Assembly: GCA_963666985.2 (NCBI GenBank)
Contig: CAXXIA010000002.1
Coordinates: 1,984,001-2,048,000 of the forward strand
Direction of reading: 5' to 3'
Source of the DNA: Spirochaetia bacterium
GTDB lineage: Bacteria; Spirochaetota; Spirochaetia; DSM-2461
Length of the DNA: 64,000 nt
The notes under the pieces were generated by a model. The model ran no database searches. It was given only the letters and a program-made list of their open reading frames with translations, and was not told the DNA's origin. Positions 4,340 to 28,112 of the stretch are shown piece by piece (the stretch's first letter is position 1; each line of letters opens with the position of its first letter). The translations under genes were made by a program, and so were the position numbers.

Positions 4340-5249
4340 GAAACCGGCTGAAACTCTTCAGTCATCCGTTAGCTCACCGGTGTTGGGCATTGCCTTTTCC
4401 TGCTTTAACAATGGGGAAACCGCCGGAAAGTGTCTTGCCAGCTGCATTGCTCAGAGCTGGAAAAATCTTGTTATTGAGGCGGCCGACGACGGTTCGACCG
4501 ACAACACGGTCGAAATCTTAATGCGAACCTCGGGAGATGATTCACGGGTGCATGTCCTGGAACTGTCTCATGGTGAACGCGGCGTGGCACGTAAAGCCGC
4601 CATCGACGCCTTGAGGGAAAAAGGATGCGATTACCTGTTGTTCATTGATTCTGATATGGAATTGGCCTCCGATCTTTGCGAACTCTGCTTGGAGAACTTA
4701 GCTGTTCACCCGGAGATAGGCGCTTTAGTGATTCCCGAGATTCCCTGGAGCGAATCGACGAATTTCTTTACCCGGGTTAAAATTTTCGAACGTTCGATTT
4801 TAAACAATGCCGGGAAACGTATCGGACGATTTTCCATCGAGGCGGCCAGATTCTGGCGGTTTCCTGTTTATGACCTTTCGGGCGGCATCAGCGAAACTCA
4901 GATCGCCTTCGAGGAGACCCAGCCGACGATTCGTTATCTGGACCAGGGAGGAATCGTCCGGCGGGCGGTTTTCACCGGTATGAAGCATAATGAAGGGTAT
5001 AACACGTTCAAGGCGATCATGGATAAGAAACGCTACTATTTCGATGCCATGCAGGGAACGATTACAGAGGAACGACAAGGCTTCTTTAAGGCCCTCTCTC
5101 GCTGGTATTTCTTTCGGCCGGTACTCTATCGTCCCTCCAACATGCTTCGTTATCTCCGCCATCCCGTTCTGGCATTGGCGATGTTTTATATGTATTTCCG
5201 ATTGAGCTTCGCGGCATTCGGAGCCTGGATGCGCAAGCGGAAGGGATAG
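4332..5249 (+). CDS. Glycosyltransferase family 2
   Basis: DDGSTDNT and FIDSD (DxD) motifs. Confidence 0.9.
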   Translation: MIKKPAETLQSSVSSPVLGIAFSCFNNGETAGKCLASCIAQSWKNLVIEAADDGSTDNTVEILMRTSGDDSRVHVLELSHGERGVARKAAIDALREKGCDYLLFIDSDMELASDLCELCLENLAVHPEIGALVIPEIPWSESTNFFTRVKIFERSILNNAGKRIGRFSIEAARFWRFPVYDLSGGISETQIAFEETQPTIRYLDQGGIVRRAVFTGMKHNEGYNTFKAIMDKKRYYFDAMQGTITEERQGFFKALSRWYFFRPVLYRPSNMLRYLRHPVLALAMFYMYFRLSFAAFGAWMRKRKG

Positions 5250-5290
5250 GACTTCGGACTGTGGTCCGACCAAAGGACCGGGAGGTTCCC

Positions 5291-5860
5291 TTATTCCCAG
5301 ATTAAGAATGGGCCGGTTCCATTCTCATGAATCTTCTTTCCATTATTCCCGATATGCCGGGAGGACGGCGAAGCGGCCAGCACCGAACCCGACGGTCCGC
5401 ATAGGACAACCGGTGTGTCGGCGGACTCGACAAGGTTCACCGCGTCTTTTTCTTCGAAACAGAAATTTCCCCGGTGTTTTAAAAGTTCGGCGTATTCCAG
5501 CGCCTGTAAAATTAAGTCTTTGGCTTCCTGGTTCACTCGCCAAGGTTTTGTTATGAACCGGAAAACCTCACCCCGATTAATCGCCGAGAGGATCATCGGA
5601 ATCTGTGCGTGGCCGGAGAGGACGATGCGTACCGTTCGAGGTGAAATTTCCTTGACCTTCTCAAGAAGAACCAAGCCGTTCATATCCGCCATCAGCAGAT
5701 CGCTGACCAGAACATCAATGTTCCGATCGGCGAGAATGGTGAGGGCTTCTTCCGGACTTGTAGTAAAAATTTGTTCAAAAGATTCGTTTCTCAGAAGGCG
5801 CTTGAGGGAGTCGAGGACCGGGAGTTCGTCGTCGACGAACAGAACTTTACTCCGTTCCAT
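5291..5860 (-). CDS. Response regulator receiver protein with short PAS-like tail
   Basis: VLFVDDE, SDLLM, LSG, TKPW receiver motifs. Confidence 0.88.
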   Translation of the reverse strand: MERSKVLFVDDELPVLDSLKRLLRNESFEQIFTTSPEEALTILADRNIDVLVSDLLMADMNGLVLLEKVKEISPRTVRIVLSGHAQIPMILSAINRGEVFRFITKPWRVNQEAKDLILQALEYAELLKHRGNFCFEEKDAVNLVESADTPVVLCGPSGSVLAASPSSRHIGNNGKKIHENGTGPFLIWE

Positions 5861-6962
5861 ATGATACTCCTCGATTCATCTTCGGGATTGTACGGATCGA
5901 TCGGAGGAAGCGGAGCGAATCGCGGATGATGTCGACGTGGGAACCTTCCCGATCGATACAGACTACCGGCATCTGCAGAACCCTGAAACGAAGTTTGCGT
6001 GCCAGATACATCATTTCCAGGTCGATGGCCAATCCGTTCTCTTCATGGAGATGATGGAGAATATGGCGGGCGGCCACCGCGTTCATGGCCTTTAGACCGG
6101 TTTGTGAATCGTAAACTCCGGGGGGCAGCAGGCGGGATGTCAGTCTCCTCTTACCGAAACTCATCAAGCGGCGAATGGGAGGCCTGTTTTCGGCTGTGAG
6201 ATCCTTTGTCCCCACAACCATGTCGTAATATCCTTCCCTCAGGATGTTGATCATCTTCGAGATATCCTCGATACGGAATGAGTCGTCGGCATCCGCAAAC
6301 ACAAGGATATCGGCCTTAATCGACTGTATCCCCTGAATGTAAGTTCCCGCCTTTCTCGTATTCTTTTGGAGATTCTGAAGGGAGAAAAAAGGTTCCCTGT
6401 GCACGATGTTCACATCTTCACTTTCCTGGGCGATGATATGGTCGATAACCTTCTGCGTGTTGTCCGCGCTTCCGTCGTTGATGAAATAGATCGTGGTGTT
6501 GAGAAACGCCTTTTCCATAAAAACGCGAAGTTTCTTCAAGAAACTGTAGACGTTCTCGATGCGGGCTTCTTCGTTGTAAACGGGAAGAATGACCGCGATG
6601 TCGTTCCGCACCGAAGAGTATTCCTGATGCATCAGTGTTTCGACTTTCTCCAAAAGCTGTTCCGGATATTCGGATCTCCAGTAAAGCAAAGAAACCGGCC
6701 CATATCCGGGGATGTTTCGGAGGAATCCGGTTTTGTTTTTTGTGATGTAATCTTCAATGAATAGAAGTGGGATATCCGGACGCATTCCTCGAACTTTCGC
6801 GGCGGTATCAGCAATCGCCGCATCGTCGTTTCGGTCGATGATGACGGCATTCACCTCATCGCCGAGTTCGGATGTTTCATTGAGGCTTACGTCGAAAAAC
6901 GACAAGATTTTGTTATAGGGAATGGCTCTATCTCCGTCTGAAACCACAGAAATAGCAGACAT
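5847..6962 (-). CDS. GT2 glycosyltransferase (polyprenyl-phosphate glycosyltransferase-like) with N-terminal receiver-like domain
   Basis: ILPVYNEE, NDGSAD, DADD, DSQTGLK motifs; SD GGAGGTG precedes ATG at 6962. Confidence 0.85.
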   Translation of the reverse strand: MSAISVVSDGDRAIPYNKILSFFDVSLNETSELGDEVNAVIIDRNDDAAIADTAAKVRGMRPDIPLLFIEDYITKNKTGFLRNIPGYGPVSLLYWRSEYPEQLLEKVETLMHQEYSSVRNDIAVILPVYNEEARIENVYSFLKKLRVFMEKAFLNTTIYFINDGSADNTQKVIDHIIAQESEDVNIVHREPFFSLQNLQKNTRKAGTYIQGIQSIKADILVFADADDSFRIEDISKMINILREGYYDMVVGTKDLTAENRPPIRRLMSFGKRRLTSRLLPPGVYDSQTGLKAMNAVAARHILHHLHEENGLAIDLEMMYLARKLRFRVLQMPVVCIDREGSHVDIIRDSLRFLRSIRTIPKMNRGVSYGTE

Positions 6963-7274
6963 TTTTACACCTCCGCTAAAAGCGTAATTCATCATTTTAC
7001 AGGAAACAATACGTCATTTTTCCAGCGGAAATAATTATTGGATGGAGGGATTCGACGAATTGTCTTCCGGAGTATCGAAAATCATGCAAAGACTCGAACC
7101 AAATCTTCTTCCGATCGCCTTATGCACCCGTGTTCGCCGAAAATTCGGAAATTTCAGTCCGGGACGGCTTTATCAGTCCTGCCGATGCGGGCCGATGGCT
7201 TCGGGAAGAACCTCCGTACGGCAGTACCCGGCATAAAAAGATATGGTACGCCGCGAATCCGCCCATATGCCGAT

Positions 7275-8363
7275 TCAATTATCTTGTGCCGATCGTTTGA
7301 GTGAATCGCCGCGTCCCCAATCAACGGTGAGTCCTGCCTGCCGTGCAATGTCATTATAGAGTTCCGGGAGTTCATCCTTGGAAGAGTCTGCGGTAATGCT
7401 TTTTTTCCCCGGAAAAAGATTGTATTGAGACCTGAACGACTGAGGTGTAAAGCACGGCATAAGAACATTGGCTCCCGCCAGAAGTCCCTCGACGCGATAA
7501 TCCGCGTCCATACTGCCGAGAGCCGTTGTTGTCGGCATCCATGCGCTGCGGGTTAGCAGCCGGGTGAGCGCGATAACACGCAGTGTCAGAGGTACATCCC
7601 CAGCCGGTTCGTTTCGCAGAGGCGTCGCCGGATGGGGAATAAAGGGACCGATTCCGATCATGTCGAAATCAAACTCGTGAAAGTAGGCTATATCATGAGC
7701 GATATGGGATATTGTCTGACCCGGCACGCCGACCATAATGCCGCTCCCCGTTTGGTACCCCAAATCCCGTAAATCCCGGAGCGCTTGAAGCCGAGTTTCT
7801 ACGCTTCGATTTTCATGAAGGGAGGCATAAAGCGATTCATCGACAGCTTCAATACGAAGGAGATAGCGGTCCGCTCCGGCCTCTCTCCACTCGGCATAAT
7901 CGGAGCGCGGCCTTTCTCCCGCGGAGAGTGTTACGGCCATTCCGGTTTCGGTTTTTATTCGTTTGACAACATCTGAGAGCCGAGAGGCCGGCGTGGCGCC
8001 TTCTCCCGACTGAAGCACAACGGTTCGTATTCCCGCATTCGCTATTCGGCGGGCCGCCGCGGCGATATGATCCGCCGACATGTGATATCGCTTTAGTGCC
8101 CGATTCTTTCGGTTCAGACCGCAGTAAAAACATGTGTTGCCGCAGATGTTTGAAAATTCAATAAGTCCACGGATAAGCATCCGCGGTCCGCACGCCTCAT
8201 TCCTCATCTTTCTCGCTTCGGCGAGAAGAATCTCATGTTCCTCCGGGCCCCCCGCCCGCAGCAGAAGTTCTATATCGGATATGGATGGCGGCGGTTTCGG
8301 ATTATTCTGCGAACGGATGCCGCGGATTCGGTCGAGAGCGGCGATATAGTCTTTTCGTATCAT
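7275..8363 (-). CDS. hydE: [FeFe]-hydrogenase H-cluster radical SAM maturase HydE
   Basis: RGLIEFSNICGNTCFYC (CX3CX2C), VLQSGE, RYLLRIE, GIGPFIPHPATP, PTTTALG, GANVLMP; ATGA-coupled to hydF. Confidence 0.88.
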   Translation of the reverse strand: MIRKDYIAALDRIRGIRSQNNPKPPPSISDIELLLRAGGPEEHEILLAEARKMRNEACGPRMLIRGLIEFSNICGNTCFYCGLNRKNRALKRYHMSADHIAAAARRIANAGIRTVVLQSGEGATPASRLSDVVKRIKTETGMAVTLSAGERPRSDYAEWREAGADRYLLRIEAVDESLYASLHENRSVETRLQALRDLRDLGYQTGSGIMVGVPGQTISHIAHDIAYFHEFDFDMIGIGPFIPHPATPLRNEPAGDVPLTLRVIALTRLLTRSAWMPTTTALGSMDADYRVEGLLAGANVLMPCFTPQSFRSQYNLFPGKKSITADSSKDELPELYNDIARQAGLTVDWGRGDSLKRSAQDN

Positions 8364-9664
8364 GCTCCGACCCGGCTGTTTGTTTTGTTTTCAATGGCAT
8401 GCCTGTAAGCCTCCAGCGCCGCCGGGAACGGCGAAAGAGTCCGTTCAACAACGCCCTGCAGCGTGGAAATCGCAATGCCGTAATTGGTCATGGCAACACC
8501 GGCGGACCGGGCCTGCTCGATACGCCATAACATTTCGCGGCGGGTGAGGGTACATCCTCCGCAGTGAATTATCAGCCGATACCGGGAAAGATCCTCAGGG
8601 TAGTCTTTTCCGGCATAATGATCGATTTCGAGATGAATCCCGGAAAATTGCCGAAGCCATCGGGGAATCTTGACTCGGCCGATATCGTCCGCCAAGGGAT
8701 GATGCGAGCATGCTTCCGAAATGAGAATTCTATCTCCCTCTTTGAGTAAAGACAGCACCGCCGCGCCTTCCGCCAAATAGGAAATGTTCCCTTTATAGCG
8801 GGAGAACAAAATGGAAAAGGTTGTGCACGGAACATTGGACGGGGTGTCAGCGGTCATTTTCAGAACGATTTGCGAATCGCAGACAACCAGATCGGGCGGA
8901 TTCTTCAGGCAGGAGAGGTAGGCCGGGAACTCCCGTTCCTTAACAACGGTTACCGCGGCGTCGCTGTCGAGGGCGTCCCGTATCGACTGTACCTGCGGCA
9001 GTATGAGACGTCCTTTCGGGGCCTGGAGGTCGATCGGTACGATGAGAGCGACCACCGGGAGTCCTTTGCCGACGGGAAGCAGATCTCCCAGAATGGCCGG
9101 AGGGTTAAGAAAATCATCGGGGCATACCGCGATCAGATTTTTTTTCAGTTCCAGAATAATCGTTTCACGGAGATGAGCCGCCTCGGAGGCCGTGCGGCGC
9201 TCATTGGTTACCGAAGTACTTTCCATAATGTAAGAGCTTTTTTTTTCGAGCTCTTCAATCCATGTTTTGCTCGGTTTTTTCAGGTCCGTCTTGTTGATGA
9301 CAAAGATGATTGGAATCTTCCGATCTTTACAGGCTTCAATAATTTTCTCTTCAAAAGGAGTCCATACGTCGCTTTCGAGAATGATTAAAGCCACATCAGA
9401 TGCGGAAAGAGCCATGGTTGTTTTTTCGACGCGAAGAGCACCTAAAGACGATTCATCATCAATTCCCGCGGTATCCAGAAAAACAACGGGACCCAGCGGA
9501 AGCAGTTCCATCGATTTATAAACAACGTCGGTGGTTGTTCCTTCCGTGGAGGAAACAATAGAGGCGGGCTGATCGGCTATTGTATTGAGGAAGCTTGATT
9601 TGCCCGTGTTTGTTCTTCCGAAAATTCCGATATGCAGGCGAAGGGATTTGGGTGTTTTCATCAT
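8360..9664 (-). CDS. hydF: [FeFe]-hydrogenase maturation GTPase HydF
   Basis: GRTNTGKSS, GTTTD, DTAG, NKTD, APKGRLILPQ, CSH...HCGGC Fe-S ligands. Confidence 0.96.
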   Translation of the reverse strand: MMKTPKSLRLHIGIFGRTNTGKSSFLNTIADQPASIVSSTEGTTTDVVYKSMELLPLGPVVFLDTAGIDDESSLGALRVEKTTMALSASDVALIILESDVWTPFEEKIIEACKDRKIPIIFVINKTDLKKPSKTWIEELEKKSSYIMESTSVTNERRTASEAAHLRETIILELKKNLIAVCPDDFLNPPAILGDLLPVGKGLPVVALIVPIDLQAPKGRLILPQVQSIRDALDSDAAVTVVKEREFPAYLSCLKNPPDLVVCDSQIVLKMTADTPSNVPCTTFSILFSRYKGNISYLAEGAAVLSLLKEGDRILISEACSHHPLADDIGRVKIPRWLRQFSGIHLEIDHYAGKDYPEDLSRYRLIIHCGGCTLTRREMLWRIEQARSAGVAMTNYGIAISTLQGVVERTLSPFPAALEAYRHAIENKTNSRVGA

Positions 9665-9676
9665 TGCGGGGTTTCC

Positions 9677-11083
9677 TTAATCTTGATATCCGAGAGCCGA
9701 AAGCGCCGCCGGAGAAAATGATTTTTCAATAATGCTTCCGTCCAGTTTTTGTTCGAGGAATACGCGGAGAAACGGACGTTCCTCTTTGGGAGTGGAAATG
9801 TACTCCGTAACGAGTTTTGCCGTTTCCGTGTATCCGATATGAGGAATGAGCGCGGTAAGCACCATCGGTTCGCGGTCCAGCAAATCTCCGCAGACCTCCG
9901 GCGATGCGTCGATAAGAACAATGTGGGACCGCAGCATGATGTCGGCATTGCGGAGCAGCTTGAGCGCTTCGATGAACGTATCCGCGATGAGCGGGAGAAA
10001 TTCGTTTATTTGAAGAGTTCCCCCCGCCGAAGCTTCCGCGATAAGAGCCATATCGGCTTTTGCTTTCATGGCGGCTTGAATAACCGCTTCCGGAATCACC
10101 GGATTCACCTTGCCCGGCATAATCGATGAACCGACCTGAACGGCGGGCAGCTTTATTTCACCGGTAAAAGAAAGGAATCGCAGATCACGGGCCGCCTTTT
10201 GAAGATTTACGGCATGGGCGGTGATAATACCGGCGACTTCCACCAGCGAATCGGAATTGGCCGTTTGGTCCACTAAATTTTCCGCCCGGGCCAAACCGTA
10301 TCCGGTCAGTTCGCGTAAATTTTCAATTACTCGGAAAATATATCGTTTCGGCGCGGTGAGTCCCGTGCCGACCGCGGTACCGCCTATATTGACGACGCGC
10401 AGTCGTTCTTCGCATTTGAACGTGCGCCACCGGTCGCGGCCGAAAGCTTCCGAATATGAAGAGAAGATCGTGCCCAGCGTCATGGGCACGGCCGCTTGCC
10501 ACTCGGTTCTTCCGGTTGTAACAATGTGCGCGAAAGCCTTTTCTTTCTCCTGAAAGGCTCCTTGGAGCGCCTCCGTCGTACCGGCCAGTTTCCGAATCAA
10601 TTCGATAAGGCAGATTTTCAAGGCGCTTGGAAAGGTGTCGTTTGTCGATTGGTGAAGGTTCACGTGGGCTAGAGGATCGACGCCGTCATCTCCGTAGTCA
10701 CCGGGCCGCCGCCCCAGGAAAAGATTCGCCTGATTGGCGATAACCTCGTTGATGTTCATATTCAAGGACGTTCCCGCTCCGCCCTGGAGAGCGTCCACGG
10801 GAAACTCTTCATCCAATTCATGGGAAAGTATCCGGTCGCAGGCGTTTCTAATAGCCTCCGCCCTTCGGCCGTCCAGATAATTCAGTTCGTAATTTGTTTT
10901 CGCACAGGCCTTTTTAACAAGGGCATACGCACGAATCAGATGCGGATCCACCGGCCGGCCGGCGAGGGGAAAATTTTCAACCGCCCGAGCCGTATGGATG
11001 CCCCATAACGCGGAGGCGGGAATGTTTTTTTTCCCAAGGGTATCCGATTCTTCTCTGTAATGAGATTCTGTGTCGTCTTTCAC
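9677..11083 (-). CDS. aspA: Aspartate ammonia-lyase (fumarase/aspartase superfamily)
   Basis: QGGAGTS, QSTND, signature GSSIMPGKVNP. Confidence 0.9.
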   Translation of the reverse strand: MKDDTESHYREESDTLGKKNIPASALWGIHTARAVENFPLAGRPVDPHLIRAYALVKKACAKTNYELNYLDGRRAEAIRNACDRILSHELDEEFPVDALQGGAGTSLNMNINEVIANQANLFLGRRPGDYGDDGVDPLAHVNLHQSTNDTFPSALKICLIELIRKLAGTTEALQGAFQEKEKAFAHIVTTGRTEWQAAVPMTLGTIFSSYSEAFGRDRWRTFKCEERLRVVNIGGTAVGTGLTAPKRYIFRVIENLRELTGYGLARAENLVDQTANSDSLVEVAGIITAHAVNLQKAARDLRFLSFTGEIKLPAVQVGSSIMPGKVNPVIPEAVIQAAMKAKADMALIAEASAGGTLQINEFLPLIADTFIEALKLLRNADIMLRSHIVLIDASPEVCGDLLDREPMVLTALIPHIGYTETAKLVTEYISTPKEERPFLRVFLEQKLDGSIIEKSFSPAALSALGYQD

Positions 11084-11910
11084 GTTTTCCCTCTTTGATG
11101 CGGCGCTTCACACCTGTGTTCCCGCGACGCGGATGAGATTTGAGAGCGCATGATGGATTCTTCGATTTGGGCGACATTCTCCGCAAAGGCCGAAGCGGTT
11201 CGTTGACGCGGGCGTTCCAGAGTGATGGCGATGTCGTGAACTATGGTTCCTTCGTTCATCGTAAGAACCCTGTCCGCTAAGAGAACCGCTTCTCCGATGT
11301 CATGGGTAACAAGAAAAATCGTCGGCTGCCGTTCCTTCCATAACCGATCCAGTTCTTGCTGAAGCTGCAAGCGCGTAAAGGCGTCGAGAGCGCCGAACGG
11401 TTCATCCAAAAGCCATAAGGAGCGGTTCTGGCATAATGCCCGTGCAAGATTAATGCGCTGTGCCATCCCCCCGGAAAGATGGCGCGGATAGGATGCAAGC
11501 CGCTTTTCCATGTGTACAAGAGTCGCGGCGTCCCGAATACGTCTGCGGGCATCCTCTTCCGGCACGTGTTCGGAGCGAAGAGCCAGCAGCAGATTTTTTT
11601 CAACCGTAAGCCAGGGAAGCAGCCTGGCATCCTGGAAGACCAGAGCCGAGACACCGCGGGCCCGATCCTGCCGAACCCCTTCAAATTCGATTGTTCCGTC
11701 ATTGGGTGTACGCAGACCGGCGATAAGACGAAGTAAAGACGTTTTTCCGCAGCCGCTGGAACCGACAATGGCTGTAAACCCGCCCGCATCGACACGAAGA
11801 GAAAGGGCGTTGACCGCCGTAACAGGATTGGAGCCATTCTCGTAGATGCATGTAAGATGGCGGAGATTTACGGCAATCAAAGGCGCTCCTTTGATTGCTC
11901 GGCCGTCCAC
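11080..11910 (-). CDS. ABC transporter ATP-binding subunit (SsuB/TauB/NitT type)
   Basis: GSSGCGKTS, LSGGMAQR, LLDEPFGALD, VTHD. Confidence 0.93.
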   Translation of the reverse strand: MDGRAIKGAPLIAVNLRHLTCIYENGSNPVTAVNALSLRVDAGGFTAIVGSSGCGKTSLLRLIAGLRTPNDGTIEFEGVRQDRARGVSALVFQDARLLPWLTVEKNLLLALRSEHVPEEDARRRIRDAATLVHMEKRLASYPRHLSGGMAQRINLARALCQNRSLWLLDEPFGALDAFTRLQLQQELDRLWKERQPTIFLVTHDIGEAVLLADRVLTMNEGTIVHDIAITLERPRQRTASAFAENVAQIEESIMRSQISSASREHRCEAPHQRGKT

Positions 11911-12671
11911 GGAGAAAGGCGGAGCGTTATCGCGCCGAGTATGCCCTCAAAGATAAATCCCAGCACCCCAATCGCCAGAATGCCGACCAGAACGCGGTCG
12001 GTTCTCGCCATTTCCTGTGAGTCCAAGATGAGATATCCAAGCCCCGAAGCGGCGGCAAAAAGTTCGGCTCCGACCAAAGCGCGCCAAGAATATCCGAAAC
12101 CGATGCGTAAGCCCGTTACTATGTGGGGAAAGGCGCCGGGAAGAAGAATAAAGCGAAGGCGATCAAATCCGGAGAGATTCAGGGTTGCCGCCAGTTCGTG
12201 CCATCGGGTATCAACCTGTTGAAAACCGTCAAAGGCGTTTAAGAATATGGGAAAAAAAGCGGCTAATACTATAACGGCGATCTTCGAACTTTCGCCTATA
12301 CCGAACCAAAGGATGAGCAGCGGAATAAGGGCCAGCGGCGGAGTTGCCCGCAGAAATGAGAGAAGAAACGAACTTCGTTCCATCCAGCGGATTCTCCGGT
12401 GAAGAAACAGAGCCAAGGGAAGGGCAATGGAAACAGTTATGCCGTATCCGATAAAGACGCGGCGAAGACTGACGGCAATATGATGCGGCAGCGACCCGGA
12501 GAGAGTTAACCTCCATCCTTCGCGCAGAACCTTTTCCGGCGAAGGAATCAAATAGTCATTTATAAGTTCCAATTTGGAAAGAAGACCCCACAGCAGGAGC
12601 AGCATTAGCGGCAGCCATGATTTTCTTATAAGAGTTGAAAATCTTAAAGGAGATCTCCGAAACAACGTCAT
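11877..12671 (-). CDS. ABC transporter permease (SsuC/TauC type)
   Basis: Six TM segments, ILWFGIGE, WRALVGAE...GLG motifs. Confidence 0.92.
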   Translation of the reverse strand: MTLFRRSPLRFSTLIRKSWLPLMLLLLWGLLSKLELINDYLIPSPEKVLREGWRLTLSGSLPHHIAVSLRRVFIGYGITVSIALPLALFLHRRIRWMERSSFLLSFLRATPPLALIPLLILWFGIGESSKIAVIVLAAFFPIFLNAFDGFQQVDTRWHELAATLNLSGFDRLRFILLPGAFPHIVTGLRIGFGYSWRALVGAELFAAASGLGYLILDSQEMARTDRVLVGILAIGVLGFIFEGILGAITLRLSPWTAEQSKERL

Positions 12672-12681
12672 TTTTGACTAT

Positions 12682-13647
12682 CTACCGGCCCAAGGCGGAG
12701 GGCAAAATGAAATCGTCCGGATTCACTTCCCGTTCGATCATACCCTGCCGAAGAAGAAACCGTATGTCATCGTTCATGCTCGCCACGTCTTCCGGAGAAA
12801 GACTGAGTGTAAAATCGGACCAGTCGTAAAGCATGCGGGCATCGTCCATACTGATTTCATGCTCCGCGGCGCCGATTGCGAGGGCCTCTTCGGTATTGAG
12901 CTCAATGTAATCCATGGCTTTTTCTTGAACGGAGATATACCGGCTTATAAGTTCCGGATATTCATTCCAAAACTCCGGACGCACTCCAACCACAAGTTTC
13001 GGAATCGCATAGCCTTCGGCCGTTGCGAGAAGACGGCAGCCTGCCTCTTTGTTCCGGATAATAAGGCTTGCCGCCTGCAGTGCCGCATCAACTTGGCCGT
13101 CCAGCAGCGCCGCCCGAGACTGCGGAAGACCCATGGAAAAAAATTCGATGTCCGATTCCGTAAGACCTTCCGAGGCCAGGGCCGCGATAAGAATCTGATG
13201 AAGCACCGTTCCTTTGGGACCGGCAACTTTCGCTCCCCGTAATTCGGCAATTGTTTGAGGACCGTTCGGACCCGTCATGATGCCGAAAGTTTTTTGCGGA
13301 CGGCTGAATCCGGATGCGATAAGAACCTGATTCCCCGCGGCATTCGCCAGAACAACCGAAGTACTGTTGATAACGGAGGCAATATCGAGAGAGCCTGCGG
13401 CCATTGCTTCCGCCTGGCGGGCTCCGGAGGTTATTTCGTGCCAGTTAATTGTAATTTCATCGTCTTCAAATTCTTGTTCGAGCAATCCTTGTTCCTTCAT
13501 GATGATGATGGGCAGGTTGAAGGGAGAGGTAACATAGGAAACGTTTATTGCAGTCGGCTTCGGATTTATTTCAGCCCGGCCTGCCGAAACAAAAAGGAAG
13601 AGTGCCGCGGAAACCGTCAGAATGATAAAAATGCCGTTTTTCTTCAT
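12682..13647 (-). CDS. ABC transporter substrate-binding protein (SsuA/NMT1-Thi5 type)
   Basis: Signal peptide; SG..QAEAMAAGSLDIA and LRGAKVAGPKGT motifs. Confidence 0.88.
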   Translation of the reverse strand: MKKNGIFIILTVSAALFLFVSAGRAEINPKPTAINVSYVTSPFNLPIIIMKEQGLLEQEFEDDEITINWHEITSGARQAEAMAAGSLDIASVINSTSVVLANAAGNQVLIASGFSRPQKTFGIMTGPNGPQTIAELRGAKVAGPKGTVLHQILIAALASEGLTESDIEFFSMGLPQSRAALLDGQVDAALQAASLIIRNKEAGCRLLATAEGYAIPKLVVGVRPEFWNEYPELISRYISVQEKAMDYIELNTEEALAIGAAEHEISMDDARMLYDWSDFTLSLSPEDVASMNDDIRFLLRQGMIEREVNPDDFILPSALGR

Positions 13648-13690
13648 GGTAAAGATCCTTCATATCCGCATCTGCGGGATTTTAATTGAG

Positions 13691-13939
13691 TTAGAGTTTT
13701 GCGAGAGTTGATTTCACCGTGACATCGGGTATCATTCCGATTTTGCCGGTTAAATCTCCGATTTTGTCCGTTGACGCGTCGACGATCAGCGTAATGATAT
13801 TCAGGTTTCTTTCCCGATACGGGAGGCCCAATCGGCCGATAATGATTTCACCGAATTGGGATAATAACGAATTAACTTCGGCTACGGATGAGGCTCTGTT
13901 CTTGACGATAATCGCGATAACTCCTACGGCTTTCTGCAT
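13691..13939 (-). CDS. TM1266-family putative iron-only hydrogenase system regulator (ACT-like, 82 aa)
   Basis: VGVIAIIV..VNSLLS..IIGRLGLPY..LTGKIG.IPDVTVKS pattern; GGAG SD upstream of ATG 13939. Confidence 0.88.
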   Translation of the reverse strand: MQKAVGVIAIIVKNRASSVAEVNSLLSQFGEIIIGRLGLPYRERNLNIITLIVDASTDKIGDLTGKIGMIPDVTVKSTLAKL

Positions 13940-14010
13940 AAGACATCTCCTTTCCGGCAATGGAATCGGAGCGATCGCACAATCGCGTATCGCCATTTTT
14001 CCATGACCAA

Positions 14011-14173
14011 ATGAACCTGAGGGAAAAGGATAATGTGCTTTGATTAGAAAGGTCGCAGAGTATCCGCCCGCCGCAATTCCGCACGCATATTGCGGCCATT
14101 CCGGCATCGTGGATTGATGAGAAACTCAATTACGACCCTCGGCTTCAGACGGTATCCTTACCTCAGGCTGTAT
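14011..14173 (-). ncRNA. Candidate structured RNA (leader of the hyd operon, or 6S-like RNA)
   Basis: Nested complementary blocks 14153-14167/14016-14032, 14121-14139/14049-14064, 14071-14077/14089-14095; mismatches become G-U pairs on the minus strand. Confidence 0.45.
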
Positions 14174-14184
14174 GTCGGATTTCT

Positions 14185-14206
14185 ATACCGTTTCTGAGAA
14201 CGGTAT
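14185..14206. promoter_or_regulatory. Palindromic operator-like site
   Basis: ATACCGTT-N6-AACGGTAT perfect 8-bp inverted repeat. Confidence 0.45.
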
Positions 14207-14433
14207 GCGAATCGCTGTATTAGCTTTGCAGTATCGGGAAAAAATAGCAAGAAGAAAATCGAATCGGTTCGGTATTTCCCGCATCTTCGACGATTCAATC
14301 CGAAATTCAGAGCATTTAAGTCCGAATCGATCACCGGGGCGGCCTGTTGGATCACGGCAATTTTCTTCAACGGTAATTCCGCACCATGAAATCAAACAGC
14401 ACCGGAATCTACAAATTTATCCGTGAATTACTG

Positions 14434-14464
14434 AAAAAAGCCGGTGCCCCAAAGACACCGGCTT
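14434..14464 (-). terminator. Intrinsic terminator after gnd
   Basis: AAGCCGGTG...CACCGGCTT stem followed by a T tract on the minus strand. Confidence 0.8.
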
Positions 14465-14540
14465 CAATTCATCTCTTCAATTCATCTCTTCAATTCGTGC
14501 GTCGTATGTCGTACGTCGCACGCGTTATCGGGATTGCTTC

Positions 14541-16049
<1,509 letters not shown>

Positions 16050-16243
16050 ATCCAACTCCTCTTCGAATCTCCACATATATTTTAGTGGGGGGAGCACCCC
16101 CCTCGCTTCGGAACCGTCCGCCGTCCTAGCCTCCGGCGGCACCGGCGCTTTTTAGCGGCTTGGTTGCCCGCCGCCGCTCCGCGCCTCGGTTCCTCCGCTG
16201 CCCCCCTGGGGGCTTTAGCAAACATTCAGAAAAATTCAGATTT

Positions 16244-16330
16244 GGCGTGTAGTCAAGGCGCATCAAGCACAGAAAGCGGAGCGTACTTTTGTACGTGAGC
16301 ATTTCGAGCATTGTCGCAACACCGAGTTAC
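16244..16330. repeat. ERIC-like/miniature palindromic intergenic element
   Basis: CAAGGCG...GCGGAGCGTAC-TTTT-GTACGTGAGC...CGCAAC layout with central hairpin; single copy in window. Confidence 0.4.
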
Positions 16331-16388
16331 CGGGATCGTTCCTCATTTCATTGCGGTACGACCCTTTCTTCACGTCAAAGGTCATTTT

Positions 16389-17660
16389 TCAATCCTTGAA
16401 TCGGCTCTCATGAGCCCACAGCCCCAGAGCCGGATTCCCCACGAAAAAAATCTCCTCGCCGTCCACCGTATTCCATCCGGTTTTCAGCTTTTTCACATCG
16501 TATTTCTCCAGAAGCGGACCCACTTCGGCGTAATTGAATCCCACGCCTTCGGTTTCTTTCCGGCTCAAATGCCCCGGCGCGTAGGTTATGGAAAAGCGGC
16601 CTTCGGAGGAGCCATGAACCAGATGCGCCGCGGCGCTCAGATTCGAACCGATGTCCTCGTTTTCTTCCACGGCCTTCAGCGTGTTCGGCGTGCCCTTATA
16701 CCCGTACTTGCGAATCAGGGCGTCGATTTCCTTATCCTCGCCGAACTCCTTCACTCCCGGTGCCATCACGATCAGCTCGCCGCCGTCGGCCATGGCCATG
16801 CGCGTTCGGTAGATGGATTTATTGCCCAGCCAGGTGCTGCGGAACTCTTCGGGTTCCAGATACACCACGCATTTCCGAATCGGCTTTTCCACCATGGTGA
16901 AGTTCACCTTAACGGCCAAATCGGCGGCCTTTTCAAAACATTCCCGGCCGTCTCCGATGAAAAGACCGCGCAGAACCAGAGCTCCGTCTTCATCAGGTCC
17001 CAGCACCGTGAGCGCCCAGAGAATCGGCAAATGGGAACCGAAATGATCGTAAGCGTAATCCAGAACGGCCCGAACAGGCGTGTCGGCTCGGCCCATCATC
17101 CGTTCCATGCCGTGCACCGCGCCCAGAAAGTGGCTCTTGTGAATCCCCTCGCTGCCGCCGACACCCACGAAGATGTTCTTCGTATAGTTGGCCATTCCCA
17201 CCACTTCATGCGGCACCACCTGACCCGGCGAAAACACCAAGTCGTGTCCCCCCTCGGCCAGAAGGGTATTCACCTGGGCGGGCCATTCGTAATCCAGTTT
17301 TCCTTCGGAGACTTCTTTCATGAATGAACCTGGAACCACGCCCAAAGTCGTTAAATCGGTGCGCCATTTGTGCTCGCGGAAGAGATCGTGGGAAACACCC
17401 GGAAACATTCGGTCCATCTCAGGCTCGGTCATGGCCGTATGGGTTCCCAGCGCGGGCATGATATCCGTAACGGCGGGCCCGTAATACTCCACAAGATCCG
17501 CCGTTAACTCTCCGGCCCGGGAATAGAACCGGGTAATGTCCGGGGGAATGGCCAGCACTTTTTTCCGCTCGCCGATTCGTCCCAGAGCCTCGAAGAGGCC
17601 CGCTTTCATCTCTTCGCGGCTGATAACGGCATCCTCACCGCCGCGCTCAAAATACATCAT
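16389..17660 (-). CDS. LarA/lactate racemase-family protein, probable D-mannonate/D-gluconate 2-epimerase (GntE-like)
   Basis: PDITR, ALGTH, PHEVVGMANYTKN LarA-type motifs; context between uronate genes and gnd. Confidence 0.8.
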   Translation of the reverse strand: MMYFERGGEDAVISREEMKAGLFEALGRIGERKKVLAIPPDITRFYSRAGELTADLVEYYGPAVTDIMPALGTHTAMTEPEMDRMFPGVSHDLFREHKWRTDLTTLGVVPGSFMKEVSEGKLDYEWPAQVNTLLAEGGHDLVFSPGQVVPHEVVGMANYTKNIFVGVGGSEGIHKSHFLGAVHGMERMMGRADTPVRAVLDYAYDHFGSHLPILWALTVLGPDEDGALVLRGLFIGDGRECFEKAADLAVKVNFTMVEKPIRKCVVYLEPEEFRSTWLGNKSIYRTRMAMADGGELIVMAPGVKEFGEDKEIDALIRKYGYKGTPNTLKAVEENEDIGSNLSAAAHLVHGSSEGRFSITYAPGHLSRKETEGVGFNYAEVGPLLEKYDVKKLKTGWNTVDGEEIFFVGNPALGLWAHESRFKD

Positions 17661-17701
17661 GAAATTGCTCCTTCAGGTTGGGCTCGTCCGGCAGGCCCTG
17701 C

Positions 17702-18586
17702 CTAAACCCAAGGCGGATTTTCAGGCAGGGCCGCGTCGAACTCCGCAAGAAGTTTTTCCTGATAGCTCCCGGCGTACGCCCCTTCAAAAAACCGTCTCAT
17801 GGCCTCATCCCGGAATCTGTTCCAACTGTTCTCTTCCGAACCGGGAATTATGGGATAGAACAGAACGCCGTTGGCCTGCGCCGCCTTCAAATCGCCGGGG
17901 GCGTCTCCAATCATCATAATTTTTTCTTTGTCGTATTTCCCTACGGCCGCGAACTCCAGATGCTGCGTTTTGGTACCCCGTTCCTGACCGGCGATGATGC
18001 GGACGAATTTCGCGATATCGTGCTCGGCCCATTCCCGTTCCAAATCGCCGGTGGGAGTCTGGCTTACAACCATCAGATCCGCCTTGGGAGCGGCCGCTTC
18101 GAGAATCCCGGGAACCTGAGGGTAGGGCGGAAGGTTTCGAACGATTTTCGCGATGGCGTCGGTGGCGTCCCTGCTCCAGGCCAAGGCTCTTTGCAGGTCG
18201 GGATGTGGGTTCCGGGAGACTTCCTCTTCCAGGGTGGACTGGCTGAGTTTGCTTTCCCGCTTCGTCCATTCCTTTACTTCGGCCACCGACGGTACGGCGA
18301 TATGCCTGGCCTTGACTTCGCTGCGTTCGGATAAGAGTTCGATAACGCGAATGGCGGCCAGGAAACGATTCACGCCTCTGGTTTTTGAATAGAGATTCAC
18401 GAATTCCAGCGTTTCTCTCGTGATGGTTGAGGCGCCCTGCATGTCGTAGTTGTTCACGAACGCCGGACAGAAGCATTCCTTCTGCTTAATCTCCATGCTG
18501 TCGAAGACACAGCCGTCGGAGTCGAAACCGATGAAAAATTCTTTTTCGGGCCTGAGGTTTTTGAGTTCCTGAACCAAATCGCTCAT
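17702..18586 (-). CDS. HAD-superfamily hydrolase/phosphotransferase
   Basis: Motif I FDSDGC, motif II VVS, motif IV IGDAPGD. Confidence 0.85.
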   Translation of the reverse strand: MSDLVQELKNLRPEKEFFIGFDSDGCVFDSMEIKQKECFCPAFVNNYDMQGASTITRETLEFVNLYSKTRGVNRFLAAIRVIELLSERSEVKARHIAVPSVAEVKEWTKRESKLSQSTLEEEVSRNPHPDLQRALAWSRDATDAIAKIVRNLPPYPQVPGILEAAAPKADLMVVSQTPTGDLEREWAEHDIAKFVRIIAGQERGTKTQHLEFAAVGKYDKEKIMMIGDAPGDLKAAQANGVLFYPIIPGSEENSWNRFRDEAMRRFFEGAYAGSYQEKLLAEFDAALPENPPWV

Positions 18587-18811
18587 TTCGTTTCCTTGCG
18601 ATAATCGATATATTTCGAAACCTAGCTTATGTCGAAGCCTTCGTCAAGAGTGAATGATGTTTCCGCATTCCGAGATTCGGGAAAAACGATCCTGCGGAAA
18701 AGCTTAAGTTCTTCTTTCTTTTAACTTTAACCGCTTCAATCATAAGAGGGAAAGAGAGACTTTTTGTTCAATTATTTGACTTTTACTAAACGTCAATTAA
18801 GAATAAATTTA

Positions 18812-20767
18812 ATGAAAAACAATAATTCCGCTAAATCTGTTTCTTTGAGCCGGCAGTTTCTCGCGGTTGCCCTTCTTTCAACCATCCCGCTTTTTCTCTT
18901 GATTGTTTTATCCAATTTGGCGTTTCTCTTCGGATCCCGAAGAATGCTGGAGATTCAAGTGGAGAACGCCACGACGGCCCTGCACGGCACAATAGAAATT
19001 CAATTGGAAAACAGTATCCGTGCCTATCTTCGATCCAAAGTGGAAATGGCGATGAATTTGCTTGATGACGCTTTGGAAAGCGGCGAGGATTTGGAAAAAG
19101 TCATTAATACCCTCAAGACAATTGAAATAGGAAAGAGCGGGTATTTTTACGGCTTGGATTCACAAGGCGTTATTGTCTTTCATATCGATCCGGAACTGAT
19201 CGGGACCAGTTTGGCCGATTTGCCTTTGGGAAAAGCGCAATTGAGCCAAAAGTACGGATATTACGAATATGATTGGCAGAATCCCATGGAGACGACTTCT
19301 CATTCCAAAGCTCTTTACATGGAATACAACGAGAAGCTTGATTGGATTATTACGGCAACTTCTTACAGGGAAGAGTTCGCTTACATGGTGGACAGGGATG
19401 CCATACTTCGCATTGTTCAAAACAGCACCGTCGGTTATTCGGGTTATTCGTATGTTTTTGACAACAGCGGCGAGGTTGTAGCCCATCCCTTTTTCAGCAC
19501 TAAGGAAGAAATTGATGCCGCCGTGGGTTCCGAGGAGTATAAGGAACTTATCAATCAATTTTTTTCCCAGAAAGAAGGCTTCTCCGGATATAAGTGGCTC
19601 AACTATGAAAAAGAAGTTGATAGGTCGAAAATGGTGTACTTGAAATACCTTCCCGATTTCGATTGGATTGTCGGAACAGCTGTTTTTCAATCTGAAATCA
19701 ATCGCCCGATTCTTATCTTGGTTATCATCGATCTGACCGTTGCGGCCGTGATGGGACTTTTTCTTACCCGGTATATCTTCCGGGTTAATAAGGCGGTGAC
19801 CACACAGATTGAACGAATCTCCGACGGATTGGAATTGGGAAGAATGGGGAATCTGGGGGTTCGGATTGAGGAGTCCGGTCCGAAAGAGCTTCGAACCATT
19901 ACCGGAAACGTCAACTTTTTCATTGAAAATCTGGAAACGCGAACCCGTGAGCTTGAAGATCTCAATACATCTTTGGAGGATCGTGTGCGGATGCGGACTC
20001 AGGAACTTGCCGTTGCCTCACAGCGGCTCGTCGAGTCCGAGAAGCAGGCCTTAACCTCCCGTCTGGTGGCCGGAGTGGCTCATGAAATCAATACGCCGGT
20101 GGGGATTGCCCTTACCTCGGTTACTTTCGCGGGCGAGTGTTTAACTTCTCTCGGCAGGGAAGAATCTCTCGATACATCGGAGGAGGAAGCGGGAGATTCT
20201 TTTAATGTGATTCAGGAAGCAATTGAAATTGCGGAGAAAAATCTTAAACGGGCCGGCGGATTGATTCAGTCTTTTAAAAATGTTTCTTCCGATCAGTTGA
20301 GCTTGAATAAACGAACTTTTCATTTGCCCGAGGTTGTTGACGATATTATCGTGTCCATGAAATCGATGGTTCGGAAACAAAATGTCGATATTTCGGTCGA
20401 CATTCCGGATATCGTATTGGACAGCTATCCCGGGGTGTTTACGCATGTTTTGGGGAATTTGATTAATAATTCCTTGAAGCACGGCTTTGTTGATGAGCGG
20501 AAAGGAGAGATTCGGATTTCCGCAAAACAAGATGGAGAGAAGATCATCTTCGAATATCGGGATAACGGAATAGGCATTTCGAAGAACTTGGAAGGTTCCA
20601 TTTTCGATCCCTTTATAACATCACAAAGGAATGCCGGAAGTATCGGACTGGGAATGAATATTGTGAAAAACCTGGTTGTTGAAAAACTCAAAGGTACGAT
20701 CGATGTGGAGAGTTCTCCGGGGGAATACACCCGATTCATCATTGAATTTCCATATGTTTCCGGATAA
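18812..20767 (+). CDS. Cache-domain sensor histidine kinase
   Basis: Two TM segments, tandem Cache repeats, HAMP, AHEINTP H-box, N/G1/F/G2 boxes. Confidence 0.92.
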   Translation: MKNNNSAKSVSLSRQFLAVALLSTIPLFLLIVLSNLAFLFGSRRMLEIQVENATTALHGTIEIQLENSIRAYLRSKVEMAMNLLDDALESGEDLEKVINTLKTIEIGKSGYFYGLDSQGVIVFHIDPELIGTSLADLPLGKAQLSQKYGYYEYDWQNPMETTSHSKALYMEYNEKLDWIITATSYREEFAYMVDRDAILRIVQNSTVGYSGYSYVFDNSGEVVAHPFFSTKEEIDAAVGSEEYKELINQFFSQKEGFSGYKWLNYEKEVDRSKMVYLKYLPDFDWIVGTAVFQSEINRPILILVIIDLTVAAVMGLFLTRYIFRVNKAVTTQIERISDGLELGRMGNLGVRIEESGPKELRTITGNVNFFIENLETRTRELEDLNTSLEDRVRMRTQELAVASQRLVESEKQALTSRLVAGVAHEINTPVGIALTSVTFAGECLTSLGREESLDTSEEEAGDSFNVIQEAIEIAEKNLKRAGGLIQSFKNVSSDQLSLNKRTFHLPEVVDDIIVSMKSMVRKQNVDISVDIPDIVLDSYPGVFTHVLGNLINNSLKHGFVDERKGEIRISAKQDGEKIIFEYRDNGIGISKNLEGSIFDPFITSQRNAGSIGLGMNIVKNLVVEKLKGTIDVESSPGEYTRFIIEFPYVSG

Positions 20768-24878: not shown

Positions 24879-25652
24879 ATGGCCCTGATAGAACGTCATA
24901 ATACGATTCTCAAGACTGTCGAGCGGCTTCGAACCGTCTCGGTGCAGGAACTGAGAGAGCGATTGGACGTTTCCGATGTTACAATACGCAAGGATTTAAC
25001 CTTTTTGGAAGAACAGGGTCTTATCCTTCGAACTCATGGCGGCGCCCGTTTGGCCGAAGACATCAACCGGATGCGCACGCTGGCTTTGAGAGAGCGGGAA
25101 AATCCGAATACCAAGAGAACGATCGCCCGCAGAGCTCTCCGCATCATTGAGGAAGGCGACACGATTTATTTGGATTCGGGATCCACATGCCAAGCTTTGG
25201 CCGAACAGATCCGGGATGCCGGCCGCACCGTTCGGATTATCACGAACGCCCTTCCCATTATGAACATTCTGGCCCCCGCCGAGAGTGTCAGTATTTTTAC
25301 CATCGGCGGTTCCTTTCGCCGGGAAGCCGGATCTTTCATCGGTCCGCTGTCGCTGGCGAATTTGAAAGACTATCAAATTGAAACCGGTTTTGTCGGAACC
25401 ACGGGCTTCAACGCCCACGGAGTCTTTTCGAGTCAAAACGTTATCGAGAGTCAGTTGAAGAAAGCCGTTCTGGCCTCGTCCCGAAGACGCATTATTCTGG
25501 CCGATTCCACCAAGGCCGATGTGCGGGCTTTCAGCGTGTTCGCCCGTCCCGGAGACGTGGATATTCTCATTACGGACACCGGCTGCCCGTATGAAAAACA
25601 GCTCAAGAAAGCCGGTTTGGAAGTCATCATCGCCAAAGAAGAGGAGAATTAA
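24879..25652 (+). CDS. DeoR/GlpR-family transcriptional regulator
   Basis: VSDVTIRKDL..RTHGGA HTH, LDSGST, ITNA, LADSTK. Confidence 0.95.
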   Translation: MALIERHNTILKTVERLRTVSVQELRERLDVSDVTIRKDLTFLEEQGLILRTHGGARLAEDINRMRTLALRERENPNTKRTIARRALRIIEEGDTIYLDSGSTCQALAEQIRDAGRTVRIITNALPIMNILAPAESVSIFTIGGSFRREAGSFIGPLSLANLKDYQIETGFVGTTGFNAHGVFSSQNVIESQLKKAVLASSRRRIILADSTKADVRAFSVFARPGDVDILITDTGCPYEKQLKKAGLEVIIAKEEEN

Positions 25653-25655
25653 AGA

Positions 25656-26876
25656 ATGAACGGGAATGCCATCGTCGCTCAGTCCGGAGGACCAACGGCC
25701 GTTATCAACGCCTCGGCCGCCGGAGTGATTCATGCCGCCATGGAAGCACCGGTTATTGATCGGGTGTTCGCGGCGCATAACGGAATTCTGGGTGTGCTCA
25801 ACGAGGAGATCTACGATCTGGGGAAGGAAGAGAAATCCGTTCTGGAAGAACTCCGCTGGTCGCCGGCTTCGGCTTTGGGTTCCTGCCGGCATAAGGTGAA
25901 AACCGATGAGGAGCGGCAGAGGATAATCGACGTATTCAAGAAACATAACATCCGGTACTTCTTCTACATCGGCGGCAACGATTCCATGGACACGGCCGAC
26001 AAAGTCTCCAAGCTCGCGCGGAAAACCGGCTACGAAATGCGCGCCGTGGGGGTTCCCAAAACAATCGATAACGACTTGGCGGAAACCGACCACTGCCCGG
26101 GTTACGGTTCGGTGATTAAATATCTGGCCGCGATGACCATGGAGGCGGGCCGCGACACCGAAGCCATGTACACCGCCGATACCGTGAATGTCATTGAGGC
26201 CATGGGCCGGAACGCCGGATGGATCGCCGCGGGATGCGCCCTTGCCAGACGAAACGAAGAGGACGCGCCGCATATTATCCTGCTGCCGGAAGTTCCCTTT
26301 AGTCGGGCCGCGTTCGCGGCGAAGGTTCGCCATTATCTGGAGAAAATCGGCCGCTGCGTCATCGTGGTTTCGGAAGGAACGAAATACCCCGACGGATCGT
26401 TTCTGTCTGAGATGAAAGGCGATTTCGCCAAGGACGCCTTCGGACATGTTCAGCTCGGCGGCGCCGCGCAGGCCGTTCAGGCCCTCGTTCAGGAAGATTG
26501 TAAAGTCAAAGCCCGCATCGCCATGCCCAGCACCATACAGCGGACGGGGGCGCACTTTGCCAGTTTAACGGACAACGAGGAGGCTTACGGATCGGGCCGC
26601 CGCGCGGTTCAGGCCGCCCTGGAAGGCGTAACCGACAAAATGATTACCCTGGTTCGGGAATCCGAAAAACCGTACCGATGCGGATACGGACTGGCCGACC
26701 TCTCGGCCGTGGCCAACGGCGAGAAATATTTTCCGAAGGAATGGATTACCGATGACGGCTTTTTCGTTACCGATGATTTTATTCGATACGCACGGCCGCT
26801 GATTCAGGGAGAAACCAAGCCGCCGATGCAGGACGGCCTGCCGCGGTACGTGCGGACGGCGAAGAACTTCGTATAG
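25656..26876 (+). CDS. 6-phosphofructokinase family, probably PPi-dependent
   Basis: QSGGPT, GGNDS, PKTIDND, MGRNAGW, SEG motifs. Confidence 0.9.
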   Translation: MNGNAIVAQSGGPTAVINASAAGVIHAAMEAPVIDRVFAAHNGILGVLNEEIYDLGKEEKSVLEELRWSPASALGSCRHKVKTDEERQRIIDVFKKHNIRYFFYIGGNDSMDTADKVSKLARKTGYEMRAVGVPKTIDNDLAETDHCPGYGSVIKYLAAMTMEAGRDTEAMYTADTVNVIEAMGRNAGWIAAGCALARRNEEDAPHIILLPEVPFSRAAFAAKVRHYLEKIGRCVIVVSEGTKYPDGSFLSEMKGDFAKDAFGHVQLGGAAQAVQALVQEDCKVKARIAMPSTIQRTGAHFASLTDNEEAYGSGRRAVQAALEGVTDKMITLVRESEKPYRCGYGLADLSAVANGEKYFPKEWITDDGFFVTDDFIRYARPLIQGETKPPMQDGLPRYVRTAKNFV

Positions 26877-27030
26877 GCCCCCCGGGAGGGCCCTGCCGGT
26901 TACGGGCAGGCCATGTTAGGTCCGGGTAGGCTCGGGTATGGCCGACTATGGCCGGGGAGGTCCGGCTATGACCGGGGAGTGCAAGCCGGGGAGAGACTTG
27001 GATTAAGCTTGAATCGGATCGGGGAGCGTT

Positions 27031-27125
27031 CTTAGGCGAAAGAAAATTTCGTCTGAATCACCGGCCTTAGGCGAAGAAAAAGTTCGTCAAAGTTCCCCGA
27101 TTTAGAGGCATAAAGAGTTCGCCTG
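27031..27125. repeat. Three degenerate 35-bp-period hairpin repeats
   Basis: CTTAGGCGAA-N7-TTCGTC at 27031 and 27066; degenerate copy at 27101. Confidence 0.6.
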
Positions 27126-27174
27126 ACGGCACTGCCGTCAAACGGAAGAATAGGAATATAAAAGGAGCAAAAAC

Positions 27175-28029: not shown

Positions 28030-28112
28030 CCTGACCCCCGGGGCCCCAATCCCCGGGGGCGAAGCCCAACGGCCGACGCCGGCCTGTGGAATCAAAGAGA
28101 AGGAGATTGAGT

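Follow-up and report, generated by a model that had tools for sequence, protein, structure and literature searches.

The stretch of DNA analysed here (64,000 nucleotides of the Spirochaetia bacterium assembly GCA_963666985.2; hereafter the window) carries on its minus strand, at 7275-13939, an operon that combines genes for [FeFe]-hydrogenase maturation with genes for an ATP-binding cassette (ABC) importer. The seven genes encode, in order, a TM1266-family putative regulator, the substrate-binding protein, permease, and ATPase of the importer, the aspartate ammonia-lyase-like AspA, HydF, and HydE (Table 1). This is the order given in an earlier note on the window, which also described GTGA and ATGA overlaps. 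Both four-base overlaps are present, at the ATPase/aspA and hydF/hydE junctions, respectively, and a third, TTGA, is probable at the permease/ATPase junction, where the ATPase probably starts at a TTG overlapping the permease stop (the open reading frame list gives a GTG at 11910 instead). The remaining three junctions are gaps of 10-43 bases. A possible alternative in-frame ATG lies upstream of the listed start of the TM1266-family gene. A contig of run X1 covers 5000-14673 with 0 differences. Contigs of another strain, sampled once in a second study (X3/X4), cover 7256-14446 at ~98.4% identity, with a different flank past hydE. Therefore, the gene order is not an assembly artefact. Promoter and terminator scans are at chance level (7 vs 6.3 and 9 vs 10.3, respectively).

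Table 1 Locations of the operon genes, leader elements, and associated genes. Locations without a prefix are window positions; L, locus in a genome, plasmid, or metagenome.
Feature	Location	Strand	Details
TM1266-family putative regulator	13691-13939	minus	82 aa; TIGR03959 105 bits (cut-off 61); PF21699
Importer substrate-binding protein, SsuA/NMT1-type	12682-13647	minus	321 aa; NMT1 Pfam; TIGR01728 140 bits, below cut-off 163.5
ABC permease, SsuC/TauC-like	11877-12671	minus	264 aa; PF00528; SsuC model 162 bits, below cut-off 347
ABC ATPase, SsuB/TauB-like	11080-11880	minus	PF00005; SsuB model 212 bits, below cut-off 395
Aspartate ammonia-lyase-like gene (aspA)	9677-11083	minus	PRK12273 488 bits, slightly below cut-off 510
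HydF GTPase scaffold	8360-9664	minus	TIGR03918 505 bits, above cut-off 325.6
HydE radical SAM maturase	7275-8363	minus	TIGR03956 319 bits, above cut-off 254.6
Operon leader	13930-14060	minus	predicted long stem pairing the ribosome-binding site of the first gene
35-base leader element of relatives, examples	L057:4229-4268; L072:6884-6922; L219:7825-7860; 18 more		
Small H-domain gene	L204:6556-7161 (genome G423); L206:10889-11503; L087, L088, L089, L101, L149, L169		
FmdE-like genes	L019:8890-9465; L060:9551-10174; L193:9996-10553, 12943-13473		

HydE, a radical S-adenosylmethionine (SAM) enzyme, keeps the CX3CX2C motif and, in an alignment to T. maritima HydE, both methionines equivalent to M224 and M291. 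The second Tyr of its C-terminal YxxY is replaced by Phe, and among 35 rows no HydE change is particular to hydG-less genomes. In HydF, motifs at residues 16, 317, and 367 represent the P-loop and the Fe-S ligands. The aspA product scores 381 bits against TIGR00839 (cut-off 681); AspA is its best family, and aspA-like genes of equal score occur in canonical hyd operons. The operon resembles the canonical TM1266-hydG-hydE-aspA-hydF operon of Thermotoga, Clostridium, and spirochaetes (e.g., genome G067) in that TM1266 comes first, hydE, hydF, and aspA stand together, and the motifs are kept. In contrast to the canonical operon, a three-gene ABC importer is inserted, and hydG is missing from both the operon and the genome.

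The genome holding the operon (G000) is assembled into 3 contigs totalling 4.86 Mb, with a completeness of 93.1%; for single-contig genomes from the same genus the scores are 92-95. The earlier note reported neither hydG nor a hydrogenase gene in the window. This holds, and the absence of hydG extends to the whole genome: the TIGR03955 profile, two HydG queries, and tblastn give hydE as the sole match in G000, a BATS domain is not found there, and none of its 28 open reading frames with a radical-SAM-like motif is HydG-like. Hydrogenase genes are present outside the window, with 7 PF02906 matches at 6 loci, three of which have the group A catalytic motifs L1/L2/L3. One of the three group A genes (G000:C2:2729103-2730891, L004/L008) is split over two frames, by either a frameshift or an assembly error. 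Thus, the maturation targets and the later steps of maturation are present, and the first step is absent. G000 also encodes a glycine-cleavage T protein, no HypF, and one prismane gene, whose start we take to be of the hybrid-cluster protein type, not of CO dehydrogenase.

Using the binding protein, HydG, and HydF as queries, we searched a sample of 401 genomes of Spirochaetia, each at least 85% complete. Among 39 binding-protein matches at an expect value (E) of 1e-30, we kept 35 as carriers of the clade (34 at 190 bits or more, and G225, which matches as two frameshifted pieces) and set aside G250, G284, G317, and G056 as weak. Partial ThiH-like matches (G075, G229, G362) were dropped from the hydG counts. 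In the co-occurrence test set by the earlier note, the clade co-occurs with hydF, which is found in 33 of the 35 carriers and in 97 of 366 non-carriers. Among the 130 genomes with hydF, the clade is in 15 of the 19 without hydG and 18 of the 111 with hydG (p 1e-7). The four hydG-less genomes that do not carry it are G383, with a hydG piece at a contig edge, G099 and G257, both without hydE, and G408, in 310 contigs. After removal of G383, G099, and G257, the hydE- and hydF-bearing genomes of the class have the clade in 15 of 16 without hydG and 18 of 112 with hydG, G253 and G383 being counted as hydG-bearing from hydG pieces at contig edges. Per genus, the ratios are 7/8 and 5/55 (p 1e-5); both p values overstate the enrichment, since related genomes are not independent and the 15 carriers represent 7 genera and 5 families.

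The enrichment recurs in a phylum sample of 201 genomes, in which 78 genomes outside the class have hydF. Here the clade is in all three hydG-less genomes (G514, G570, and G578) and in 5 of the 75 with hydG; the three have hydE and a hydA-type gene and belong to one family. When both samples are pooled, the ratios are 18/19 and 23/187. All 18 hydG-less carriers with hydF keep a PF02906 gene and hydE with its main active-site motifs (in G225 in pieces), which suggests that the imported substrate enters the pathway before HydE acts. In five hydG-less carriers, a relaxed HydG search matched hydE alone. One of them, G240, a single contig that is 98% complete, groups the importer with hydF, aspA, and hydE, and yields no hydG match at E 0.001.

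The importer is also physically linked to the maturase genes. In 6 of the 15 hydG-less carriers of the class (G000, G208, G225, G387, G240, and G233), hydE or hydF lies within 9 kb of the binding-protein gene, on the facing strand in G240 and G233; none of the 18 hydG-bearing carriers of the class shows such linkage. Outside the class, G578 has the order permease-ATPase-binding protein-hydE-hydF; hydF adjoins the importer in G514, and in G570 and G554 the importer flanks hydA. The eight genomes with importers linked to hydE or hydF all lack hydG. Among 80 metagenome loci, the importer, hydE, and hydF are joined on three (L098, L100, and L144), hydE-like genes lie 5-9 kb from the importer on L165, and hydG is found on none within the flanks covered. 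The L144 protein is named from Tepidanaerobacter; therefore, the arrangement extends beyond spirochaetes. The linked copies occupy five places on a quick tree (122 rows), with further linkage in family f95, so the linkage is either ancestral or repeated. The linkage of transporter and maturase genes, which the earlier note set as a test, recurs.

Two further features tie the importer to hydrogenase. The first is a leader element of 35 bases, which in relatives spans the start of the first gene along with its ribosome-binding site. It occurs 21 times at E <0.001 in 2.5 Mb of loci, 10 of these being the training set, and precedes both TM1266-hydG operons and unlinked importer operons, in G067, G033, and G216 within the same genome. 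At the sequence level, the common element indicates shared regulation or shared origin of the hyd and importer operons. A hand-drawn hairpin for it pairs in 91.8% of cells, and the covariation is weak (2 pairs with changes in both partners, a level reached by 29 of 500 shuffles). The hairpin is a candidate translational control element, or the element may be a conserved ribosome-binding site and start only. The G000 leader does not match the 35-base profile. Its own predicted stem has a folding energy of -39.2 kcal/mol (z -2.9, a value that 1 of 200 shuffles reached), and no credible Rfam riboswitch match is found at 5000-20000 of the window.

The second feature is an unannotated protein of ~200 residues (201 aa) whose gene heads the importer operon at eight loci and is the first gene wherever it is seen. 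Its predicted model has a predicted local distance difference test (pLDDT) score of 95.5. Compared with 48,161 chains, the model matches [FeFe] hydrogenases alone, at Z 11.5-13.0 over 192-195 residues and with a drop to 6.6 for the next chain. Four Cys occupy the H-cluster motif positions, an Arg precedes the first, and the second motif has no Lys. The fold is the H-domain fold of the minimal archaeal group E [FeFe] hydrogenases (~286 aa), from which the protein differs in its shorter length, in the Arg before the first cluster Cys, and in the missing Lys. The family has 128 clusters at 50% identity, with members named from Treponema, Clostridium, and Campylobacter. A search of 54 genomes detected the gene in 2, each time beside the importer, and the eight loci include three of the four genomes set aside above as weak binding-protein matches. 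The protein may be a carrier or a sensor. G423, in which no PF02906 match is found at E 1e-10, was considered as a clean counter-example and rejected; its importer follows a small H-domain gene.

The predicted model of the binding protein (pLDDT 94) has the SsuA/TauA fold with an N-terminal hydrophobic helix. Most of its invariant columns hold Gly, Ala, Pro, Asn, Gln, Ser, or a hydrophobic residue; the lack of an invariant Cys or His argues against a bare metal ion as ligand. The importer shares fold and three-part layout with SsuABC and TauABC. It differs from them in its ~22% identity, in its scores below the curated cut-offs, in other conserved segments, and in its context, which is hydrogenase maturation and not desulfonation. 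TauA is the next structure after SsuA, followed by CmpA, ThiY, PqqT, and NrtA. ThiY (3ix1), PqqT (9b1u), and a thiamin-binding protein (4nmy) belong to the same binding-protein class (Z 22-25), at 12-16% identity and with ligands unlike the organometallic one proposed here. The family comprises at least 2060 clusters at E 1e-60. A scan of genome contigs with the single binding protein returned 1 locus, and the Atlas gave nothing further for it.

Import of a precursor in place of its synthesis is familiar from the biology of thiamin and B12. Salvage importers are a known kind, and one for an organometallic H-cluster precursor would be new. We propose that this ABC importer takes up an Fe(CO)(CN)-thiolate on which HydE can act, and that the operon matures the H-cluster by salvage; we put the probability of this reading at roughly 0.55. 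That the importer serves H-cluster supply of some kind is highly probable. Two marks of salvage importers are found here, namely enrichment where the early step is missing and co-location or a shared leader with later pathway genes. The salvage interpretation is well supported at the level of comparative genomics and is a proposal at that of chemistry.

The chemistry needed for such a route is described in the works cited here. The HydG product is Fe(CO)2(CN)-cysteinate (complex B), on which HydE acts, and synthetic complex B substitutes for HydG in vitro (PMC11256358, PMC10114646). AspA can supply the bridge nitrogen (PMC11736057). In the proposed mechanism, the binding protein would capture a mononuclear iron-carbonyl-cyanide thiolate, either Fe(CO)2(CN)-cysteinate or a sturdier form, which would come from hydG-bearing neighbours or from the turnover of cofactor. 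The other two importer components would carry it inward, HydE would convert it to the diiron dimer, and HydF would add the bridging ligand with ammonium from AspA, after which HydA would be matured. The in vitro system, in which HydE, HydF, and external Fe(CO)2(CN)-cysteinate suffice for active HydA (PMC11256358), is a laboratory bypass, of which the operon would be the natural, transporter-fed counterpart.

Cells with hydG would retain the importer as an optional route, and some lineages could then lose hydG. The earlier note placed the importer in the stead of the HydG step. The enrichment where hydG is missing agrees with this; the importers of 18 of 112 hydG-bearing genomes, none linked to hydE or hydF, do not, and suggest an optional salvage route that permits loss of hydG, not a simple replacement. 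The broader picture would be that anaerobes cross-feed the organometallic precursor through a widespread importer, that lineages drop hydG, and that in some of them the ~200-residue H-domain protein receives, stores, or senses the unit; on this the balance is even.

Several observations weigh against the uptake of a HydE precursor, in addition to the relatedness of the carriers and the single family outside the class. The importer is present in 23 hydG-bearing genomes (18 in the class and 5 outside it), and the closest named relative, Alkalispirochaeta alkalica (68%), has hydG and an unlinked importer. The clade occurs without hydE or hydF in G423, G250, G284, G317, and G554. In 9 of the 15 hydG-less class carriers the importer is unlinked, and in 7 of these 9 (G062 and six genomes of genus g23) the binding-protein gene has neither a permease nor an ATPase gene beside it, a count that covers adjacent genes only. 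On about 76 of the 80 metagenome loci, many of them short, the flank covered contains no maturase gene. The linked operon of G225 is frameshifted. In the strain of the second study, third codon positions account for 25 of the 40 listed differences (of 147), and for 7 of 14 in hydE, which is weak evidence of selection on the operon. Four near-closed genomes of the genus of G000 (G001, G005, G009, and G012) have one full-score hydA-type gene and neither hydE, hydF, hydG, nor importer; hydrogenase genes can thus persist without a known maturation route. The best structural match of the binding protein is SsuA (2x26; Z 34.3, root-mean-square deviation 2.2 over 283 residues, 22% identity), and a sister branch in Rhizobium (L196 and L150) stands beside a luciferase-like monooxygenase gene. 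Plasmids also bear the clade, together with FmdE-like genes: 6 E. coli records (from 5 of 5426 complete genomes) and one of Azospirillum. No PF02906 match is found on the four clade-bearing replicons tested, a search confined to those replicons. We know of no exporter of the precursor. Complex B has a half-life of minutes, and the synthetic complex decays rapidly in water according to one review and persists for a few hours according to another (PMC11256358, PMC10114646).

An unlikely alternative, the best placed of three, is that hydrogenase turnover releases a diiron unit already complete or almost so (the whole [2Fe] subsite or the SH-bridged dimer), which the importer then brings in, HydE being kept for recycling or through inertia. 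Binding-protein genes lie around hydA in G570 and G554, and G554 (94% complete) has neither hydE, hydF, nor hydG. The four Cys of the small H-domain partner could hold a diiron unit, and synthetic [2Fe] complexes mature HydA inside E. coli cells (PMC6282530). However, a ready-made dimer would make HydE needless, and 18 of 18 hydG-less carriers with hydF keep it with its main motifs; the small H-domain protein, moreover, is missing from G000.

It is somewhat less likely still that the importer brings in a simpler ingredient, such as thiocyanate, a cyanoferrate, or iron with cysteine, from which HydE and HydF assemble the subsite with ambient CO and cyanide, without HydG. This would accommodate the same phylogenetic profile. 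The fold class binds small anions (SsuA, TauA, CmpA, and NrtA), and the plasmid copies in Rhizobium and Chelatococcus are near iron-uptake genes. In addition, HydF expressed with HydE alone gives ~1% activation, which CO or cyanide doubles (PMC9431212). Yet the linked operons have no conserved assembly enzyme, G000 has neither HypF nor an evident CO source, and CO and HCN diffuse, which would leave an ABC importer unneeded.

The least likely reading, an ordinary organosulfonate or nutrient importer that is found near maturases through a shared anaerobic lifestyle, with the hydG-less operons as decaying remnants, draws on the SsuA- and TauA-like fold, the Rhizobium sister branch, the E. coli plasmid copies among insertion sequence (IS) remnants, the frameshift in G225, and the codon positions of the strain differences, but it predicts neither the 18/19 versus 23/187 enrichment, nor the linkage at five tree places and in f95, nor the common 35-base leader and the H-domain partner, and all three importer genes miss the SsuA/B/C cut-offs. 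No sulfonate-degrading gene is found in the operon or beside its linked relatives, the places in which such enzymes were sought. The uptake of a sulfur or cysteine source, which the earlier note offered as its simpler alternative, is weakened likewise, since it fails to predict the hydG-less enrichment or the H-domain partner.

The uptake of an Fe(CO)(CN)-thiolate by this importer would bear on the source of the active H-cluster in microbes whose maturase sets are incomplete, and would give that question a specific component that is cheap to test. An alternative maturation pathway has been called for (PMC11216029), and the missing hydG of 5 of 8 acetogens was left unexplained, with atypical candidates offered (PMC9431212). 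We found no description of an importer for H-cluster precursors in the open-access literature, a search that did not cover most subscription papers; the words ABC and transporter are absent from the main text of PMC11736057. If the proposal is correct, this would be the first transporter of a metal-carbonyl-cyanide complex in the literature searched, and an H-cluster intermediate thought to pass only from protein to protein would be shared between cells. It would also assign a function to a large family now labelled sulfonate transporters, allow engineered hydrogen producers to be supplied with synthetic precursors, and provide a natural route around HydG, and with it a lead for genomes with incomplete maturase sets.

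The clade extends to other taxa and gene contexts. Sutterellaceae carry it, and Sutterella and Parasutterella are among the bearers of [FeFe] hydrogenase (PMC4794192). In genus g23 (L061, L064, L065, L069, L074, L075, L079, and L084), a lone binding-protein gene follows queA; in the hydG-bearing G042, TM1266 directly precedes it, as in no other member of the genus. Many importer operons unlinked to hydE or hydF contain one or two copies of an FmdE-like gene. Arg, Lys, and Glu are conserved in its product, and neither His nor Cys is; there is no Pfam match, the Atlas giving a lead only, and the gene is absent from G000. At L193:9996-13473, the importer and two FmdE-like genes are cargo among IS remnants on E. 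coli plasmids.

A second TM1266 gene of G000 (L092:2634-8647; G000:C2, ~2.43 Mb) closes a FecBCD-type ABC importer operon, which is divergent from genes for a CobW/HypB-like GTPase, an ATPase, and a binding-protein-like product. This operon is a possible second metal-complex uptake system. In the window, an 11-base repeat and a hairpin lie after gnd at 14446-14519, where the second strain has a shorter replacement. A lactate-racemase-domain gene and a HAD-like gene (16389-18586) precede gnd, and DeoR, phosphofructokinase, uxaC, and uxaE-like uronate genes follow at 24879-30772; both groups are ordinary sugar catabolism. A DDE transposase gene with DUF772 lies at 60050-61630.

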